Below are positions 6,288-12,458 of a stretch of 64,000 nucleotides of DNA, piece after piece; position 1 is the first letter of the stretch, and each line of letters starts with the position of its first letter. The DNA is from Candidatus Sungiibacteriota bacterium (GTDB taxonomy: Bacteria; Patescibacteriota; Minisyncoccia; Sungbacterales; HO2-52-23). Position numbers and translations under genes: made by a program. The notes under the pieces were generated by a model that was given only the letters and a program-made list of their open reading frames with translations, was not told where the DNA came from and ran no database searches. The stretch lies in assembly GCA_016432465.1 (NCBI GenBank), contig CP066690.1, positions 526,823-590,822 of the forward strand, read 5' to 3'.

Positions 6288-7487
6288 ATGTCATATTCCA
6301 TAAACTATAAACATATTTTATATCTCGTCGTGCTGCTGCTTGCGGGAGTATTAATGTCGCTGCCGTTTGGCGGCCGCGGAGCTTATTCCGGGCGGAAAAT
6401 TGTTGTTTTTGACGAACATTTTGTAAATAAAGCAGCTCAGGAGGAGTTGCTTGCCAAAGCCGGCGGAGTAAAAACCAAAGACTTGCCGCTTATTAATGGC
6501 TCTGCCGTGTTTCTTCCCAGCAAAGCCTCGGAGCGCGCACTTTTAGTTAATCCTGCGGTAAAACGTATTGATGATGATGTCGTGGTTTCTATACTGGGGA
6601 AAGTCGGAGCCGGCGGTAGTGGCTCAACCCAACCCGCTCAAGTATTGCCTTGGGGAATTGATCGGATAGATGCCGAGCTTGTCTGGCCAGGTGGTAACAC
6701 CGCCGACCCCATAAAAGTGGGCGTTATTGATACTGGCATTTCCAATAAACATCCGGACCTTCTTGATAATGTAAAAGGCGGGGTTAATACTATAAATCCC
6801 AACAAAAACTGGAATGATGATAACGGTCATGGCTCGCATGTTGCGGGGATTGTCGGCGCGCTACAAAATAGTATTGGCGTTGTGGGTGCAGGACCGGCAG
6901 TTGATCTTTATGCCATCAAAGTACTTGGCGCCAATGGTTCTGGTTTTCTTTCCGATGTAGTTGAGGGAATTCAGTGGGCAGTGCAAAACGGCATGCAAGT
7001 AGTCAATATGAGTCTCGGAACCTCAAGCGATGTTCCTTCCCTGCATGATGCTGTTCTTGTTGCCCATAATGCCGGAGTAACCGTAGTCGCGGCAGCAGGT
7101 AATAGCGGCGGCGCAGTAATTTTTCCCGCAGCATATTCTGAAGTAATTGCGGTATCAGCGACCGATCAAAATAACGTGCTCGCTTCTTGGTCTTCGCGCG
7201 GTCCGGAAGTTGATCTGGCCTCACCCGGAGTTTCCATATACTCTACCTACAAGGGTACAGGATACGCTACACTTTCCGGGACTTCTATGGCCGCCCCGCA
7301 TGTTGCGGGTTCCGCGGCACTGGTTCTGAATACGCCAGTTGGTTTCTATGATGTGAATAGTAACGGTAAATGGGATCCTGCGGAGGTGCAAAAAAAGCTG
7401 CAGGATACAGCAGTGGATCTTGGGACAACTGGGGTGGATGGTTTGTACGGATGGGGACTGGTGAATGTTTTTAACGCGACACAGTAA
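6288..7487 (+). CDS. subtilisin-like serine protease (peptidase S8) with N-terminal signal/propeptide
   Basis: Catalytic triad motifs VIDTGI (Asp), HGSHVAG (His) and GTSMAAPHVAG (Ser). Confidence 0.9.
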   Translation: MSYSINYKHILYLVVLLLAGVLMSLPFGGRGAYSGRKIVVFDEHFVNKAAQEELLAKAGGVKTKDLPLINGSAVFLPSKASERALLVNPAVKRIDDDVVVSILGKVGAGGSGSTQPAQVLPWGIDRIDAELVWPGGNTADPIKVGVIDTGISNKHPDLLDNVKGGVNTINPNKNWNDDNGHGSHVAGIVGALQNSIGVVGAGPAVDLYAIKVLGANGSGFLSDVVEGIQWAVQNGMQVVNMSLGTSSDVPSLHDAVLVAHNAGVTVVAAAGNSGGAVIFPAAYSEVIAVSATDQNNVLASWSSRGPEVDLASPGVSIYSTYKGTGYATLSGTSMAAPHVAGSAALVLNTPVGFYDVNSNGKWDPAEVQKKLQDTAVDLGTTGVDGLYGWGLVNVFNATQ

Positions 7488-7545: not shown

Positions 7546-8175
7546 GTATTATGGCCTCATATGAATCTCGTTATTCAGTCTCTTATATTCGCCAGTTTTA
7601 TTTTTGAGACCGGGTTTGGCCTGCTTTCGCCCATTTTTGCCGTTTTTGTAACACAGCAAGTCGGCGGAGGCGATGTTACGGTGGTAGGAATTGCAGCCGG
7701 CGTCTACTGGATTTTAAAGTCCATATTGCAGGTGCCGGTGGGCAGGTTTCTTGATAAAAAACAAGGGGAAGACGACGATTTTTGGGCGTTATTTGCCGGC
7801 CACTTTCTTATGGGTCTAACCGTGTTTCTTTATCAGTTTGCGCGTACCCCTATACATATATATATGCTGCAGGGGTTGCTGGCCATTGGCGGCGCGCTTC
7901 TGGTGCCGTCTTGGTACGCCATGTTTCTTCGCCACGTTGATAAACATAAAGAAGGTTTTGAGTGGAGTATTAACTCCAGTCTGTCTTACGGTTTAGGAAC
8001 AGGCGGAGCTGGGGTTCTGGGCGGATTTTTGGCCAAGGCCTATGGTTTTAATTTTATTTTTGTGACCGGGGCGATATTGGTGTGGGCCAGTTTGCTTATG
8101 CTCTTGGTTTTGCGGCGGAACCTGCGTAATCATCAGCTCCCGCCAATACCAAAAGCGCCTTCACCCGTTTTATGA
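7534..8175 (+). CDS. membrane protein, MFS-transporter-like half (6 TM)
   Basis: The ORF track start is TTG. ATG at 7561 is the more likely start. Hydrophobic helices with a G-rich loop. Confidence 0.5.
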   Translation: MSYLVLWPHMNLVIQSLIFASFIFETGFGLLSPIFAVFVTQQVGGGDVTVVGIAAGVYWILKSILQVPVGRFLDKKQGEDDDFWALFAGHFLMGLTVFLYQFARTPIHIYMLQGLLAIGGALLVPSWYAMFLRHVDKHKEGFEWSINSSLSYGLGTGGAGVLGGFLAKAYGFNFIFVTGAILVWASLLMLLVLRRNLRNHQLPPIPKAPSPVL

Positions 8176-9962
8176 CCAATCAGGAAATTGCAAAAATTTT
8201 GCAGGAAATGGCCGCCCTCTACGAGATGGAGGGCGTTGAGTTTAAGCCGCGCGCTTACGAGAAAGCCGCGCTTGGGGTGGAAGCGTTGGATACGGAAGTA
8301 AAAGAAATTTATAAAAAGGGCGGATTAAAAGCCCTTGAAGAAGTTCCGGGAGTGGGGCGGGGCATTGCGTATCACATGGAGATGCTTTTGAAAAAAGGCA
8401 GTTTCCCGGAGTATACGCGGCTTAAGAAAAAAATTCCAGTGCGAATTTCAGAGCTTACTTCAGTGGAGGGTGTGGGGCCGAAGATGGCGAAGGTATTGTG
8501 GCAGAAACTTAAAATTCGTAGTCTCGCTGATTTAGAAAAAGCGGCGAGAGCCGGAAAAATCCGAAAGCTTGAAAATTTCGGTGAAAAATCCGAGCAGAAA
8601 ATTTTAAAAGGCATTGGGTTTTTGAAAAAATCAGGCGGCAGACAAATTCTCGGATTTATTCTTCCGGAAATTCGCAATCTTGAGAAAATGATTCAATTTT
8701 TTCCAGAAGTTGACGAAGCGATTGTCTGCGGCTCCGTGCGGCGCCGTAAAGAAACCATTGGCGATATAGATATTTTGGCAACCTCATCAAAGCCCCAAAA
8801 AGTAATGGATAGATTTCTGGGACTGCCATTTATTGCCCATGTTTATGGCAAGGGGCCAACCAAGACCAACGTAAAACTCCGACGTTTTAGTCGGAGCTCC
8901 GACCCCGCGTCGGGGTTAAAAAATGGTCTGGATGCTGATTTGCGTGTAGTTCCCAAAAAATCTTTCGGTGCCGCGGTAAACTATTTTACCGGCTCCAAGG
9001 ACCATAACATCGCGCTTCGGGAAATTGCAATTAAAAAAGGGTGGAAGTTAAACGAGTACGGACTATTTGCGGGAAGTCGGACTTCCTTGAGGAAGTCCGA
9101 CTTCCTTGCCGGACGGACGGAAGAAGAGCTCTACCGGAAACTCGGGCTTCGCTATATTGAACCCGAAATGCGAGAGAATACAGGAGAGATTGAGTCTTCA
9201 CGGCAGAATAAATTACCCAAACTCATTGGCTATGGAGACCTCAAGGGAGATTTACAGGTCCAAACCAATTGGACTGACGGAGAGAACTCTATTGAGGAGA
9301 TGGCGCGAGCGGCCAAAGAGGCGGGGCTTGAATACATCGCGATAACAGACCACACCCGTTCTCTAGCCATGACCGGAGGCGCAGATGAGAAAAAACTCCT
9401 TAGGCAAATGAGAGAAATAGACGAAATCAACCAAAAGCTAAAAGCTAAAAGCTATAAGCTTCACGTGTTGAAGGGTGCTGAAGTAAATATCGGCAAAGAC
9501 GGCTCCTTGGACATCAAGGACGAAGTTTTAAAGAAACTTGATGTGGTTGGCGCGGCCGTGCACAGCCACTTTAATTTATCACGCAGCGAACAAACCAAAC
9601 GTCTTATCCGCGCCATGGAAAATCCAAACGTGGATATTATTTTTCATTTAACCGGTCGCATTATAAACCGCCGCGAGCCGATTGATGTGGATATTGACGA
9701 AATTGTAAAAGCCGCCAAGCGCACCAAAACAATTTTAGAAATTGATGCCTACCCCGACCGTTTGGATATTAAAGACGAATATATCCGCAAGTGCGTTGAA
9801 GCGGGTGTTAAAATGTCTATTGATTCCGACGCGCATTCGGCCCAGCACTACAAGTATTTAGAAATAGGGATAGCGCAGGCGCGAAGGGGTTGGGCAGAGA
9901 AGAAAGATATTATCAATGCGTGGCCGCTGGAGAAGATGAAGGATTTTCTAAGAGATGCTTGA
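8172..9962 (+). CDS. polX: DNA polymerase X family protein with C-terminal PHP domain
   Basis: HhH motifs. Pol-beta nucleotidyltransferase motif GSVRRRKETIGDIDIL. PHP motifs ITDHT and HSH. ATGA overlap with the upstream gene. Confidence 0.85.
   Translation: MTNQEIAKILQEMAALYEMEGVEFKPRAYEKAALGVEALDTEVKEIYKKGGLKALEEVPGVGRGIAYHMEMLLKKGSFPEYTRLKKKIPVRISELTSVEGVGPKMAKVLWQKLKIRSLADLEKAARAGKIRKLENFGEKSEQKILKGIGFLKKSGGRQILGFILPEIRNLEKMIQFFPEVDEAIVCGSVRRRKETIGDIDILATSSKPQKVMDRFLGLPFIAHVYGKGPTKTNVKLRRFSRSSDPASGLKNGLDADLRVVPKKSFGAAVNYFTGSKDHNIALREIAIKKGWKLNEYGLFAGSRTSLRKSDFLAGRTEEELYRKLGLRYIEPEMRENTGEIESSRQNKLPKLIGYGDLKGDLQVQTNWTDGENSIEEMARAAKEAGLEYIAITDHTRSLAMTGGADEKKLLRQMREIDEINQKLKAKSYKLHVLKGAEVNIGKDGSLDIKDEVLKKLDVVGAAVHSHFNLSRSEQTKRLIRAMENPNVDIIFHLTGRIINRREPIDVDIDEIVKAAKRTKTILEIDAYPDRLDIKDEYIRKCVEAGVKMSIDSDAHSAQHYKYLEIGIAQARRGWAEKKDIINAWPLEKMKDFLRDA
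9072..9105. repeat. tandem duplication of a 15-nt palindrome (GGAAGTCNGACTTCC x2) inside polX, in frame
   Basis: ggaagtcggacttcc-ttga-ggaagtccgacttcc, read directly. Confidence 0.7.
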
Positions 9963-9990
9963 CCCCGCACCTTTTTGGCGCAAGTAAAAT

Positions 9991-10266
9991 ATGCACTATA
10001 TTTATATCTTGAAAAGTATTACAGCCAAGATTCTGTACACTGGTCGTACAGAAAATTTGTCCAGAAGAATAAGAGAGCATAACTCCGGTGGTACTTTTAC
10101 TACAAAAAAGTATAAACCACGGGCGTTAGTATAGTGCGAAGGGTATTTTGATATTGAGGACGCTAAGTATAGAGAACGGACCATCAAACAGTTCGGTAGG
10201 GTGTATTCACAGCTCAAACGCAGAATACAAAGAAGCCTTCGCAGCGCCGAAAAGGTGCGGGGTTGA
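9991..10266 (+). pseudogene. GIY-YIG nuclease superfamily protein (UPF0213-like) interrupted by in-frame TAG
   Basis: MHYIYILKS...ILYTGRTENLSRRIREHN is a GIY-YIG signature. TAG at 10132-10134 sits where the conserved Tyr of ..LVY.E.. is expected. The frame continues to TGA at 10264-10266. Confidence 0.6.
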
Positions 10267-10291
10267 CTTTTTGAAGTAAAAAGAATATAAT
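10263..10291 (+). promoter_or_regulatory. sigma70-like promoter (TTGACT -17nt- TATAAT)
   Basis: TTGACT at 10263-10268 and TATAAT at 10286-10291, upstream of the GC-rich ORF. GGGGG SD before the ATG at 10375. Confidence 0.5.
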
Positions 10292-10374
10292 AAAGATATA
10301 GTTCACAGGCCCGCTGAACTTCCGCATGGTGTGGGATAAGGCGTGTCCGTCACAACAAAGAAAGGGGGACAACC

Positions 10375-10968
10375 ATGCCAGAGCATGGAACAACCCAGGC
10401 AGAGTTTGAAGGTCTCTATATTGACCTTCAGTCGGCGGTGCTCCGTCAGCTACCGCGGCCGGCAGCCTTTACCCGCGAGACGCTGAAGAGCCTGCTCGGG
10501 AAGCAGGCGGCACTTCGGCGCGGTTTGGCGCCGCTCGCCAAAGGACTCGTGGACGGCTTCGCTGCCCCACTGCGGCCGATCCTGCAGAACGACAAGCGGC
10601 GGCAGGGATGGACGCTCGTCGACCACACGCCGCGTAGCATCATGGCCGTGTCGGACCTAGAGCTTGTCCCGTTTCTGCGGGACGGCGAGAAGGTTCTCCG
10701 CGGCTACGACATGATGGGCCGCGCGCGCTATGAGTTCGACGCGGACCTCGGCCAAGAGGACGCCGAGTTCATTCTTGAGCGTCAGGCCGAGATTCCAGAG
10801 GAGTTCCGCCAGTACTACCTGGTTTTCCTCAGGACGGTCTGGCTGGCCTCGGACGGCGACCTGTACGTGTCCTGCCTCTACTTCGGCGACGGGCGGTGGT
10901 ACCCGTTCTTCGGCTGGCTCGACTTCGACTTCCGTCCGGGCGTTCGTCTCGCTCGCTTCCGCAAGTAG
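10375..10968 (+). CDS. hypothetical protein, GC-rich (foreign-looking) gene
   Basis: Coding region is markedly more GC-rich than its flanks (third positions mostly G/C). Own promoter and SD. Terminator downstream. No recognisable family. Confidence 0.6.
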   Translation: MPEHGTTQAEFEGLYIDLQSAVLRQLPRPAAFTRETLKSLLGKQAALRRGLAPLAKGLVDGFAAPLRPILQNDKRRQGWTLVDHTPRSIMAVSDLELVPFLRDGEKVLRGYDMMGRARYEFDADLGQEDAEFILERQAEIPEEFRQYYLVFLRTVWLASDGDLYVSCLYFGDGRWYPFFGWLDFDFRPGVRLARFRK

Positions 10969-11023
10969 TCCTTTCACTCTTGGGATTCTGGACAGTTCTT
11001 GTCCTGGATTCCTTGAGAACTTT

Positions 11024-11065
11024 AACGCCTGTGTGGCTTCTCCGCACAGGCGTTCGACATTTTTA
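11024..11065 (+). terminator. rho-independent terminator (imperfect 12-bp stem + TTTTT)
   Basis: AACGCCTGTGTGG..CCGCACAGGCGTT, then CGACATTTTT. Confidence 0.5.
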
Positions 11066-11072
11066 AGTTAAT

Positions 11073-11085
11073 GAGGTTGAACCTC
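11073..11085. repeat. palindromic hairpin GAGGTTGAACCTC (copy 1, left end)
   Basis: Read directly. Confidence 0.8.
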
Positions 11086-11113
11086 ACTAGGAGATGGAGT
11101 ATACTGATCTTGT

Positions 11114-11827
11114 ATGTCAAAACCACAATTCGTTGAGGACAATATCTATCATGTATATAACCGAGGCGTGGAGAAGAGAAACGTATTTCTTCGAGACCGA
11201 GACTACCTCCGTTTTATTCACGATCTCTATGAGTTTAATGATGTCGATCCTGTCTCCAATGTATGGTACTATTTCAACCCAAAATATAATGAGGTTGAAC
11301 CTCATTATATTCCAAAAGAACGGAAGAAACGTAAATTGCTTGTAGAGATTCTGGCATTCGTATTGATGCCGAATCATTATCATCTTCTTTTACGCCAGCT
11401 TCGAGAAAATGGTATTGTAAATTTTATGCAGAAGCTGGGCGGCTACACGATGTATTTTAACAAAGTGAATCAACGGGTTGGTCCACTTTTTCAGGGACGA
11501 TTTAAGGCGGTTGCGGTTACCGAAGAACCCCACTTTATTTACCTGCCGTTCTATATTCATGTTAACCCCATCAAAATCTATCGAGGTTCGACCTCGCTAG
11601 ATAAGACGATGAAGTTCTTAGAATCATATCGCTGGAGCAGCTTTCCCGATTATATTGGAAAAAAGAATTTTCCTTCGATAACTTCGCGCCGATTTCTGCA
11701 TGAATGTTTTGGCGGGGAAAAGGAACAACGGAATGAAATGCGGCAGCTTGTCAAAACGAAATTTGCTGATTTGGAAAAGGTTAGTGAGCTGACCCTCGAT
11801 GATGATTTCGGAATGCTACAAAAATAG
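11114..11827 (+). CDS. Y1 (HUH) transposase, IS200-like / REP-associated tyrosine transposase (RayT/TnpA_REP)-like
   Basis: HUH motif in LMPNHYHLLL. N-terminal IYHVYNRGV. GRFKAV and a Tyr-containing C-terminal region. About 237 aa. Confidence 0.65.
   Translation: MSKPQFVEDNIYHVYNRGVEKRNVFLRDRDYLRFIHDLYEFNDVDPVSNVWYYFNPKYNEVEPHYIPKERKKRKLLVEILAFVLMPNHYHLLLRQLRENGIVNFMQKLGGYTMYFNKVNQRVGPLFQGRFKAVAVTEEPHFIYLPFYIHVNPIKIYRGSTSLDKTMKFLESYRWSSFPDYIGKKNFPSITSRRFLHECFGGEKEQRNEMRQLVKTKFADLEKVSELTLDDDFGMLQK
11291..11303. repeat. palindromic hairpin GAGGTTGAACCTC (copy 2, inside transposase CDS)
   Basis: 18-nt identity with copy 1 (TAATGAGGTTGAACCTCA). Confidence 0.8.
11583..11595. repeat. palindromic hairpin GAGGTTCGACCTC (copy 3, inside transposase CDS)
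   Basis: cgaggttcgacctcgctag, read directly. Confidence 0.75.
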
Positions 11828-11828
11828 C

Positions 11829-11841
11829 GAGGTTCAACCTC
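11829..11841. repeat. palindromic hairpin GAGGTTCAACCTC (copy 4, right end)
   Basis: cgaggttcaacctcactag, immediately after the transposase stop. Confidence 0.8.
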
Positions 11842-12008
11842 ACTAGTTACGGCTGGGTGCATTTTCCCGACCACCGCGTCTTACGAACTACCACCAAAAG
11901 GCGTATGATTAAAAAGTTAGCCGCGGCCAAAACTAAAGCAACCGAGATTTCTTACGCCGGATTTCTCAAACACGGCAGTACTTATAAGTTGAGAGCTTCT
12001 CTTAATTT

Positions 12009-12458
12009 ATGCCCGTTGAACGCTCTGCAGGAATAATAGTTTTTCGCAAGACCCCAAGAGGAAGGAGATATTTGGTTATACGGGCCTCTAGAAATTTTTC
12101 TGAAGTTGCCAAGGGCAGAAAAGTTCATGAATTTTGGGATTTTCCGAAAGGAAGATTGGATAAGGGCGAGACGGGAATTGGCGCTGCTCTGCGGGAAGCA
12201 AAAGAGGAAGTGGGTCTGGACAATTTTGAAGTTGTCCCGGATTTTAAGGAAACCATCCGTTATTTCACGTGGCGTGGCGGAAAACCAATCCCTAAATTTG
12301 TGGCTCTCTTTTTGGCTCGCACCAAAACCAGTAAAGTTAAACTTTCCTGGGAACACGATAAATATGAGTGGCTGTCCTACACTGAAGCTGTGAGGCTGGT
12401 TACTTTGCCACAGATGAAAGATGCGCTGAGGAAGTCAGAGAACTTTTTATCCCGTTAG
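12009..12458 (+). CDS. NUDIX hydrolase
   Basis: Nudix box GRLDKGETGIGAALREAKEEVGL. Confidence 0.85.
   Translation: MPVERSAGIIVFRKTPRGRRYLVIRASRNFSEVAKGRKVHEFWDFPKGRLDKGETGIGAALREAKEEVGLDNFEVVPDFKETIRYFTWRGGKPIPKFVALFLARTKTSKVKLSWEHDKYEWLSYTEAVRLVTLPQMKDALRKSENFLSR

Follow-up and report, generated by a model that had tools for sequence, protein, structure and literature searches.

A GC-rich gene of Candidatus Sungiibacteriota as the probable surviving target of a decayed diversity-generating retroelement

Why does a small genome of the candidate phyla radiation (CPR) carry a gene so rich in G + C that it looks foreign to its own surroundings? Here we analyse a stretch of 64,000 nucleotides (the window) of Candidatus Sungiibacteriota bacterium (assembly GCA_016432465.1, contig CP066690.1, positions 526,823 to 590,822 of the forward strand), in which the conspicuous gene is an intact open reading frame (ORF) at 10375–10968 (+) that encodes 197 amino acids. 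With a probability that we put at about 85%, this gene encodes the variable (target) protein of a diversity-generating retroelement (DGR) of the Patescibacteria/CPR type, orphaned by a loss of machinery associated with a Y1 transposase unit. The 'foreign' gene would then be the surviving target of a dead hypermutation system.

The question was raised by an initial annotation, made from the sequence alone, which described a GC-rich gene in AT-rich surroundings, recently acquired as cargo from a high-GC donor. The ORF has a GC content of 0.640 (0.71, 0.42 and 0.80 at the first, second and third codon positions) and was compared with the 56 other non-overlapping ORFs of at least 100 amino acids within the window. 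It is the top compositional outlier among them, with z = 7.6 for total GC and z = 9.3 for third-position GC (GC3; mean ~0.46, sd ~0.04 in the other ORFs). Among all 600-nt bins, the one at 10201–10800 has the highest GC content (0.59). The compositional contrast is therefore real; 'AT-rich' overstates the matter for surroundings with 46% GC.

Retroelements beside the homologues and the variable region of the window gene

DGRs work by error-prone copying: reverse transcription of a template repeat (TR) introduces errors specifically at adenines, and the cDNA so formed overwrites a variable region (VR). The window protein is identical to HYW89_02910 (Candidatus Sungiibacteriota, a CPR metagenome-assembled genome), and a word-indexed search recovered 24 homologues, none of which has a Pfam domain. 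At the locus of one of them (P0018, locus L003; 43% identity over the aligned columns of alignment A1, 52% in the best local alignment), the target gene is followed directly by genes for bAvd and for a reverse transcriptase (RT) of the RVT_1 type, and its 3' end recurs downstream as a repeat of 134 nt; 23 of the 25 mismatches between the two copies fall at adenines of the downstream copy. The closest cassette, L011, encodes a target protein (P0003) that is 75% identical to the window protein, and there all TR/VR mismatches (19/19) are at TR adenines. The same holds for 20 of 22 mismatches in L022 and 19 of 21 in L023, and a looser pattern is seen in L013–L015, L017, L021 and L026, so that a TR is present in L003, L011, L013–L015, L017, L021–L023 and L026. 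Mismatches that lie almost solely at TR adenines are the hallmark of a DGR. The cassette order in the sister loci is target gene, hairpin and terminator, TR, bAvd (on the opposite strand) and RT.

The loci L013, L014, L015 and L017 are near-identical and come from different samples. Their TRs are closely alike: L014 and L015 share the same one, and that of L013 differs at a few non-adenine positions. The VR of L015 is unlike those of L013 and L014, mainly at template-adenine positions. This suggests that diversification is ongoing in that lineage, unlike at the invariant window locus.

The window gene contains a template-less VR at 10841–10964 (+), which is colinear with the VR and TR of L011 and includes a 3' end (...CGCTTCCGCAAGTAG) resembling an initiation-of-mutagenic-homing (IMH) site. 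This 3' end equals that of the L011 VR and differs from that of the L011 TR. Compared with the VR of L011, the window VR has a different base at 15 of 29 TR-adenine sites and at 11 of 95 others (Fisher p = 1.7e-5). Its dN/dS is 0.79, with low dS, compared with 0.19 for the gene outside the VR (both against L011), and adenine is absent from its third codon positions. The pattern suggests that the window gene was diversified in the past. Six assemblies, each from a different sequencing run, match the window with 100% identity over the whole segment, the Y1 unit included; the VR therefore looks frozen in one allele.

Directly after the stop codon lies a three-tier hairpin with U-U/U-U (CTTGG) internal loops (10977–11017, +); folding of 10966–11066 gave z = -6.8. 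The same architecture, with symmetric internal loops between the stems, follows the stop codon in most of the 16 family loci that were folded, whether an RT is adjacent or not. A consensus structure (RNAalifold; 8 of the 16 loci, alignment trimmed to the hairpin) has 14 pairs, 9 of them with compensatory changes. Target recognition by the BPP-1 DGR requires a hairpin/cruciform downstream of the VR (PMC3240598). By its position, the hairpin at 10977–11017 is a candidate for the corresponding target-recognition element, and with its covariation it may represent the CPR version of that element.

Likeness to the BPP-1 DGR (mtd/TR/avd/brt) extends to the position of the VR at the 3' end of the target gene, to the IMH-like end where VR and TR diverge, and to the structured inverted repeat immediately 3' of the stop codon (PMC3240598). 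The hairpins themselves differ: a three-tier stem of ~15–20 bp with T-T/T-T loops and a 5–12-nt loop in the window family, and an 8-bp GC stem with a GRNA tetraloop in BPP-1. Unlike that of BPP-1, the target of the window family is not a phage tail protein, and no family member was found in the viral contigs searched.

By published descriptions, the closest known systems are the DGRs of Patescibacteria/CPR ('clade 2' of Roux et al. 2021; the 'CPR set' with UVR1-6 of Wu et al. 2018). These are abundant, their targets are typically small and without recognisable domains, and several of their VR classes are unclassified (PMC8144416, PMC5758913). The window family resembles them in its small cassette with one adjacent target and a C-terminal VR, in its adenine-specific TR/VR differences, in the bAvd and short RT of the sister loci, and in a target without transmembrane segment or recognisable domain (PMC8144416, PMC5758913). 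It is unlike them in that the window cassette is dead, with the target gene and ~55 RT codons left and the rest replaced by the Y1 unit. DGRs being known in CPR, the window adds a decayed example with exact breakpoints. Less expected are the family-wide GC offset that is specific to the target gene, the many RT-less copies in a large family, and the covarying hairpin with its T-T loops.

Remains of the cassette and its acquisition

On the same strand as the target gene, 880 nt downstream and in cassette order, lie the last ~55 codons of an RT gene (11851–12015, +). A tblastn search with the L003 RT aligned its residues 232–282 to 11851–12003 (57% identity, E = 7e-13), and BLASTP gave 56% over residues 232–285 of 287. 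The RVT_1 domain of the sister RT occupies residues 30–233 and the remnant begins at about residue 232, so the catalytic domain is missing. A TAG stop (11845–11847) stands immediately upstream of the remnant, and the frame continues to 12036, 28 nt into the NUDIX gene (12009–12036).

The space between target gene and remnant is taken by a Y1 (HUH) transposase unit (11067–11847, +), with an ORF at 11114–11827 and bounding GAGGTTSAACCTCACTAG hairpins at 11069–11089 and 11825–11845. L011, the closest cassette, can be aligned with the window at the nucleotide level (79.6%) from 10426 to 11066, up to the first palindrome of the unit. Because homology ends at 11066 and the RT remnant starts right after the last palindrome, the Y1 unit fills the place of the TR, avd and RT codons 1–231. 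The initial annotation had noted a flanking IS200-like element; the element is there, but it is no mere neighbour, since it sits where TR, avd and most of the RT belong.

Within the window, tblastn with the sister RT found no other RT match, tblastn with the L003 Avd found no significant Avd match, and blastn (word size 7) of 10263–11110 against the 64 kb found no TR, the only repeats being the palindromes of the Y1 unit. The DGR cassette at the window is nonfunctional: the 64 kb hold no intact RT, no TR and no bAvd. The locus is a natural example of DGR decay with breakpoints exactly at a Y1 transposase unit.

The unit resembles IS200-like elements, with marginal scores: the ORF matches Pfam Y1_Tnp with 23.3 bits (cut-off 23; E = 7.6e-5) and the REP-associated tyrosine transposase (RAYT) model of NCBIfam with 37.3 bits, under the cut-off of 80. 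An HUH motif (NHYHLL) and a tyrosine motif (YIHVNP) were read from its translation. These motifs, the Y1_Tnp match and the flanking near-identical hairpin palindromes are features of IS200/IS605 TnpA and RAYT; the marginal scores (23.3 vs 23; 37 vs 80) and two palindromes in frame inside the ORF set the unit apart from them. The palindrome GAGGTTSAACCTCACTAG occurs in four copies, all in the 800-bp unit (8 strand-matches vs 0.24 expected in 64 kb). The two internal copies (11283–11311, a perfect 14+1+14, and 11574–11603) encode ...NEVEPH... and ...RGSTSL... in apparent linker regions. No second copy of the Y1 gene was found in the 64 kb or in the other loci examined.

The whole segment between the PolX gene (8172–9962) and the NUDIX gene (12009–12458) is an insertion of 2,046 bp (9963–12008, +), which contains a GIY-YIG pseudogene, the target gene, the Y1 unit and the RT remnant. 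Three relatives (L035, L036, L037; PolX 78–82% identical) have the order MFS-PolX-NUDIX-MGMT-...-L20-L35, with PolX-NUDIX gaps of 2 nt (L035), 104 nt (L037) and 510 nt with an unrelated 124-aa ORF (L036). Homology of the window to these relatives ends at ~9938–9962 and resumes at 12008/12009. Since the segment is absent from all three, as the synteny comparison proposed with the initial annotation has now established, it was inserted in the window lineage; and since the relatives match the window again precisely from the NUDIX start codon onwards, the RT stop must have lain within a few codons of the original cassette's end. The ORF in the gap of L036, a Candidatus Sungbacteria insert (8743–9117, -), has a hydrophobic, signal-peptide-like N-terminus; the PolX-NUDIX gap may be a recurrent insertion site.

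The GIY-YIG nuclease gene (9991–10266, +) is decayed, as had been proposed: an in-frame TAG interrupts it at 10132–10134, and PF01541 matches (E = 1.5e-15) only when this codon is read through. Its stop codon overlaps the -35 box of the target gene. Neither the rest of the window nor any related locus has a further GIY-YIG copy. The idea that GIY-YIG or Y1 genes regularly accompany the family was rejected, as neither has a copy at any other locus.

These remains would fit the following course of events. In the intact cassette, the RT would have copied the TR RNA into cDNA with misincorporation opposite adenines, and the cDNA would have overwritten the VR, which makes up the final ~125 nt of the target gene. 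A beta-sheet surface at the C-terminus of this small protein, presumably a ligand binder, would thereby have been rewritten. At some time the complete cassette would have been inserted, along with the GIY-YIG gene, between polX and the NUDIX gene. Later, the palindrome-bounded Y1 unit may have replaced the TR, avd and RT codons 1–231, either by insertion followed by deletion or by replacement. The target gene would have kept its promoter, Shine-Dalgarno (SD) sequence, IMH-like 3' end, hairpin and terminator, with the VR frozen in one allele.

The intact ORF with its conserved IMH-like end and hairpin might also belong to an active remote target that owes its diversification to an intact DGR acting in trans from another part of the 923-kb genome, a situation documented for some DGRs (PMC5758913). 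This is the main alternative, and we consider it improbable: there is no RT or TR within 64 kb, the six assemblies show 0 differences, and among the best 120 RT homologues none is named for this genome, which is weak evidence. In addition, the only other family copy seen in the genome is likewise orphaned. This copy, HYW89_00845 (P0023, 238 aa; L009 10001–10717), lies among glycosyltransferase genes, has a scrambled and extended C-terminal region, and has no TR or RT in the flanks examined (~10 kb upstream and ~2.4 kb downstream), which makes it another orphan in decay.

Origin of the GC excess

If the gene is an orphaned DGR target, its composition still needs an explanation. In all 19 of 19 loci the GC content of the target gene exceeds that of its flanks (mean +0.128, range +0.047 to +0.258; Wilcoxon p = 1.3e-4). 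Target GC also tracks the GC content of the flanks, that is, of the host (0.34–0.58), with r = 0.69 and a slope of 0.77. In complete cassettes, the target gene has 0.53–0.59 GC; avd and RT have 0.34–0.43, lower than the host flanks.

A stand-alone cargo gene recently acquired from a high-GC donor, with the GC3 of the donor genome, would be in line with the GC3 z-score of 9.3, with the absence of the segment at the same site in relatives and with the occurrence of family members in unrelated genomic contexts. The signature of a donor, though, should extend to every gene of the cassette and should not turn up in one host after another; the excess is therefore a trait of the family. All 19 loci show it, it scales with host GC, and the RT and avd genes that accompany the target are AT-rich. 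The window's own RT remnant (0.46) and target-gene leader (0.52) are host-like, and its Y1 unit has 0.41. The gene is moreover tied to a DGR and is not free cargo. Recent acquisition from a high-GC donor is thus distinctly improbable. That the segment was acquired has stood; the donor signature and the free cargo gene have not. The GC excess is intrinsic to the family, and GC3 outliers in general should be read as donor signatures with caution. The contrast between a GC-rich target gene and AT-rich RT and avd genes is missed by DGR surveys that compare the GC content of whole cassettes with that of the host.

The excess rises from 5' to 3' towards the VR. Adenine makes up 0.24 of third positions in host genes, 0.18 in the N-terminal part of the target genes, 0.12 in the conserved domain and 0.04 in the VR (0.00 in the window VR). 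It is known that adenines need to be kept out of the silent sites of TR and VR. The scarcity of third-position adenine in the VR fits such avoidance and reinforces the GC excess there. Adenine mutagenesis was rejected as the cause for the gene as a whole, because third positions beyond the VR have lost T to about the same extent as A. Conceivable, though rather unlikely, is that the GC/GC3 excess is a by-product or a requirement of DGR targeting; the cause might then lie in GC-biased gene conversion or repair around the repeatedly overwritten VR, or in selection for a coding sequence poor in adenine and in A + T. On the same reading, the C-terminal domain could be a VR scaffold other than the canonical C-type lectin fold and come with a recognition hairpin of its own, three-tiered and with T-T loops.

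The target protein, its family and its transcription unit

The protein had been described as belonging to no recognisable family. A profile search of 1.84 billion cluster representatives gave 2,125 matches at E < 1e-3, 173 of them at E < 1e-30, and thus places it in a large, unannotated family of DGR target proteins, for which a confident structural model is now available as well. The window protein and 93 family members had no match in Pfam and NCBIfam. Sequence profile matches in the Protein Data Bank (PDB) were rejected as spurious, being designed 'Pizza' repeat proteins found through a short motif. At 90% identity the protein forms a cluster with a single member sequence. In the homologue alignment the N-terminus varies, the middle is strongly conserved, and the last ~45 residues are hypervariable around a scaffold of W, G, R and L. 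In the window protein, residues 1–69 form a helical, poorly conserved N-terminus and residues 70–197 the conserved domain; across the profile matches, the conserved part is this C-terminal domain of ~130 residues. Six members (P0025 with 517 aa, P0026, P0048, P0084, P0093 and P0137) have two to four C-terminal domains of ~110–130 residues each in tandem. Family members are found in unrelated contexts (after adk-map, next to uvrB, before ileS), which is consistent with mobility of the cassette.

AlphaFold modelled the full protein with a pLDDT (predicted local distance difference test) of 83.7 and residues 70–197 with 96.3 (predicted template modelling score, pTM, 0.88). The predicted order of elements in the domain is beta-beta-alpha-alpha-(alpha)-beta-beta-beta-beta, with the VR on the last C-terminal strands. 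In element order and VR position, the model resembles the C-type lectin-fold variable proteins (Mtd, TvpA, archaeal AvpA, Thermus TaqVP). It is unlike them in that Foldseek against the PDB and viral models gave no significant match to the domain, and no solved DGR variable protein was among the top 50 Foldseek matches. C-type lectin (carbohydrate-recognition) domains recurred as weak top matches (template modelling score, TM, 0.33–0.42; E > 0.5). Unannotated VR domains of CPR are expected to be divergent C-type lectin folds (PMC8144416); the weak matches to the predicted model are compatible with such a fold but do not prove it. No signal peptide or membrane segment was apparent in the sequence on inspection by eye alone, in keeping with what has been published on CPR DGR targets (PMC8144416). 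The target is a small protein that presumably binds a ligand.

Several observations weigh against the gene being an orphaned DGR target. The structural model is of high confidence, and yet it finds no significant structural match, C-type lectin domains being only weak top matches. The 64 kb are without TR, avd or a catalytic RT domain, so that we infer DGR activity at this locus from the relatives and the remnant. Outside the VR, A and T at third positions are both about halved relative to host genes, a GC3 excess that is symmetric. Finally, L001, L020, L025, L027 and L033 have no TR or RT within kilobases, and the family may have a life independent of DGRs.

Taken further, the last point would make the family mainly a DGR-independent small protein, some members of which were captured as targets, with a window copy that was never diversified. 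The size of the family and the many loci without TR or RT within several kb speak for this. It is nevertheless very improbable for the window gene, given the RT remnant 880 nt downstream on the same strand and in cassette order, the divergence of the window VR biased to adenine sites, the retained hairpin and the lack of third-position adenine in the window VR. In the RT-less loci L025, L027, L033, L020 and L001, too, the third positions of the VR are still free of adenine, and most have the post-stop hairpin; orphan or remote targets seem to be common in the family.

The gene was said to form a self-contained transcription unit, and all of its proposed parts are present. The promoter TTGACT-17-TATAAT (10263–10291, +) has 11 of 12 sigma-70 matches, and a TATAAT (mostly TGTATAAT) stands at the equivalent upstream distance in L003, L009 and L022. 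The 5' leader (10292–10374, +) contains a G-rich SD sequence, AAAGGGGGA (~10359–10367), which ends 7–8 nt upstream of the ATG. The intrinsic terminator (11024–11064, +) consists of a hairpin at 11024–11054 (13 pairs, 8 GC) with its loop, followed by TTTTT, and is conserved with L011 up to 11066. With these elements in place, the target gene is probably still expressed.

The leader is related to those of other family loci. Its block 10305–10345 is conserved with paralogous loci, and 10277–10343, which comprises the -10 region and part of the leader, is 79% identical to L009 9891–9957, upstream of the distant paralogue in the same genome; the leader also resembles L001 ~6800–6850, a locus labelled Saccharibacteria. 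An Rfam scan of 9900–12100 gave nothing credible, the leader included, and the leader was rejected as a structured RNA, its folding energy being ordinary (z = -0.16). The conserved part of the leader contains a small hairpin, CCGCA-UGG-UGYGG, with a possible covarying pair (GCC:GGC / GUC:GAC).

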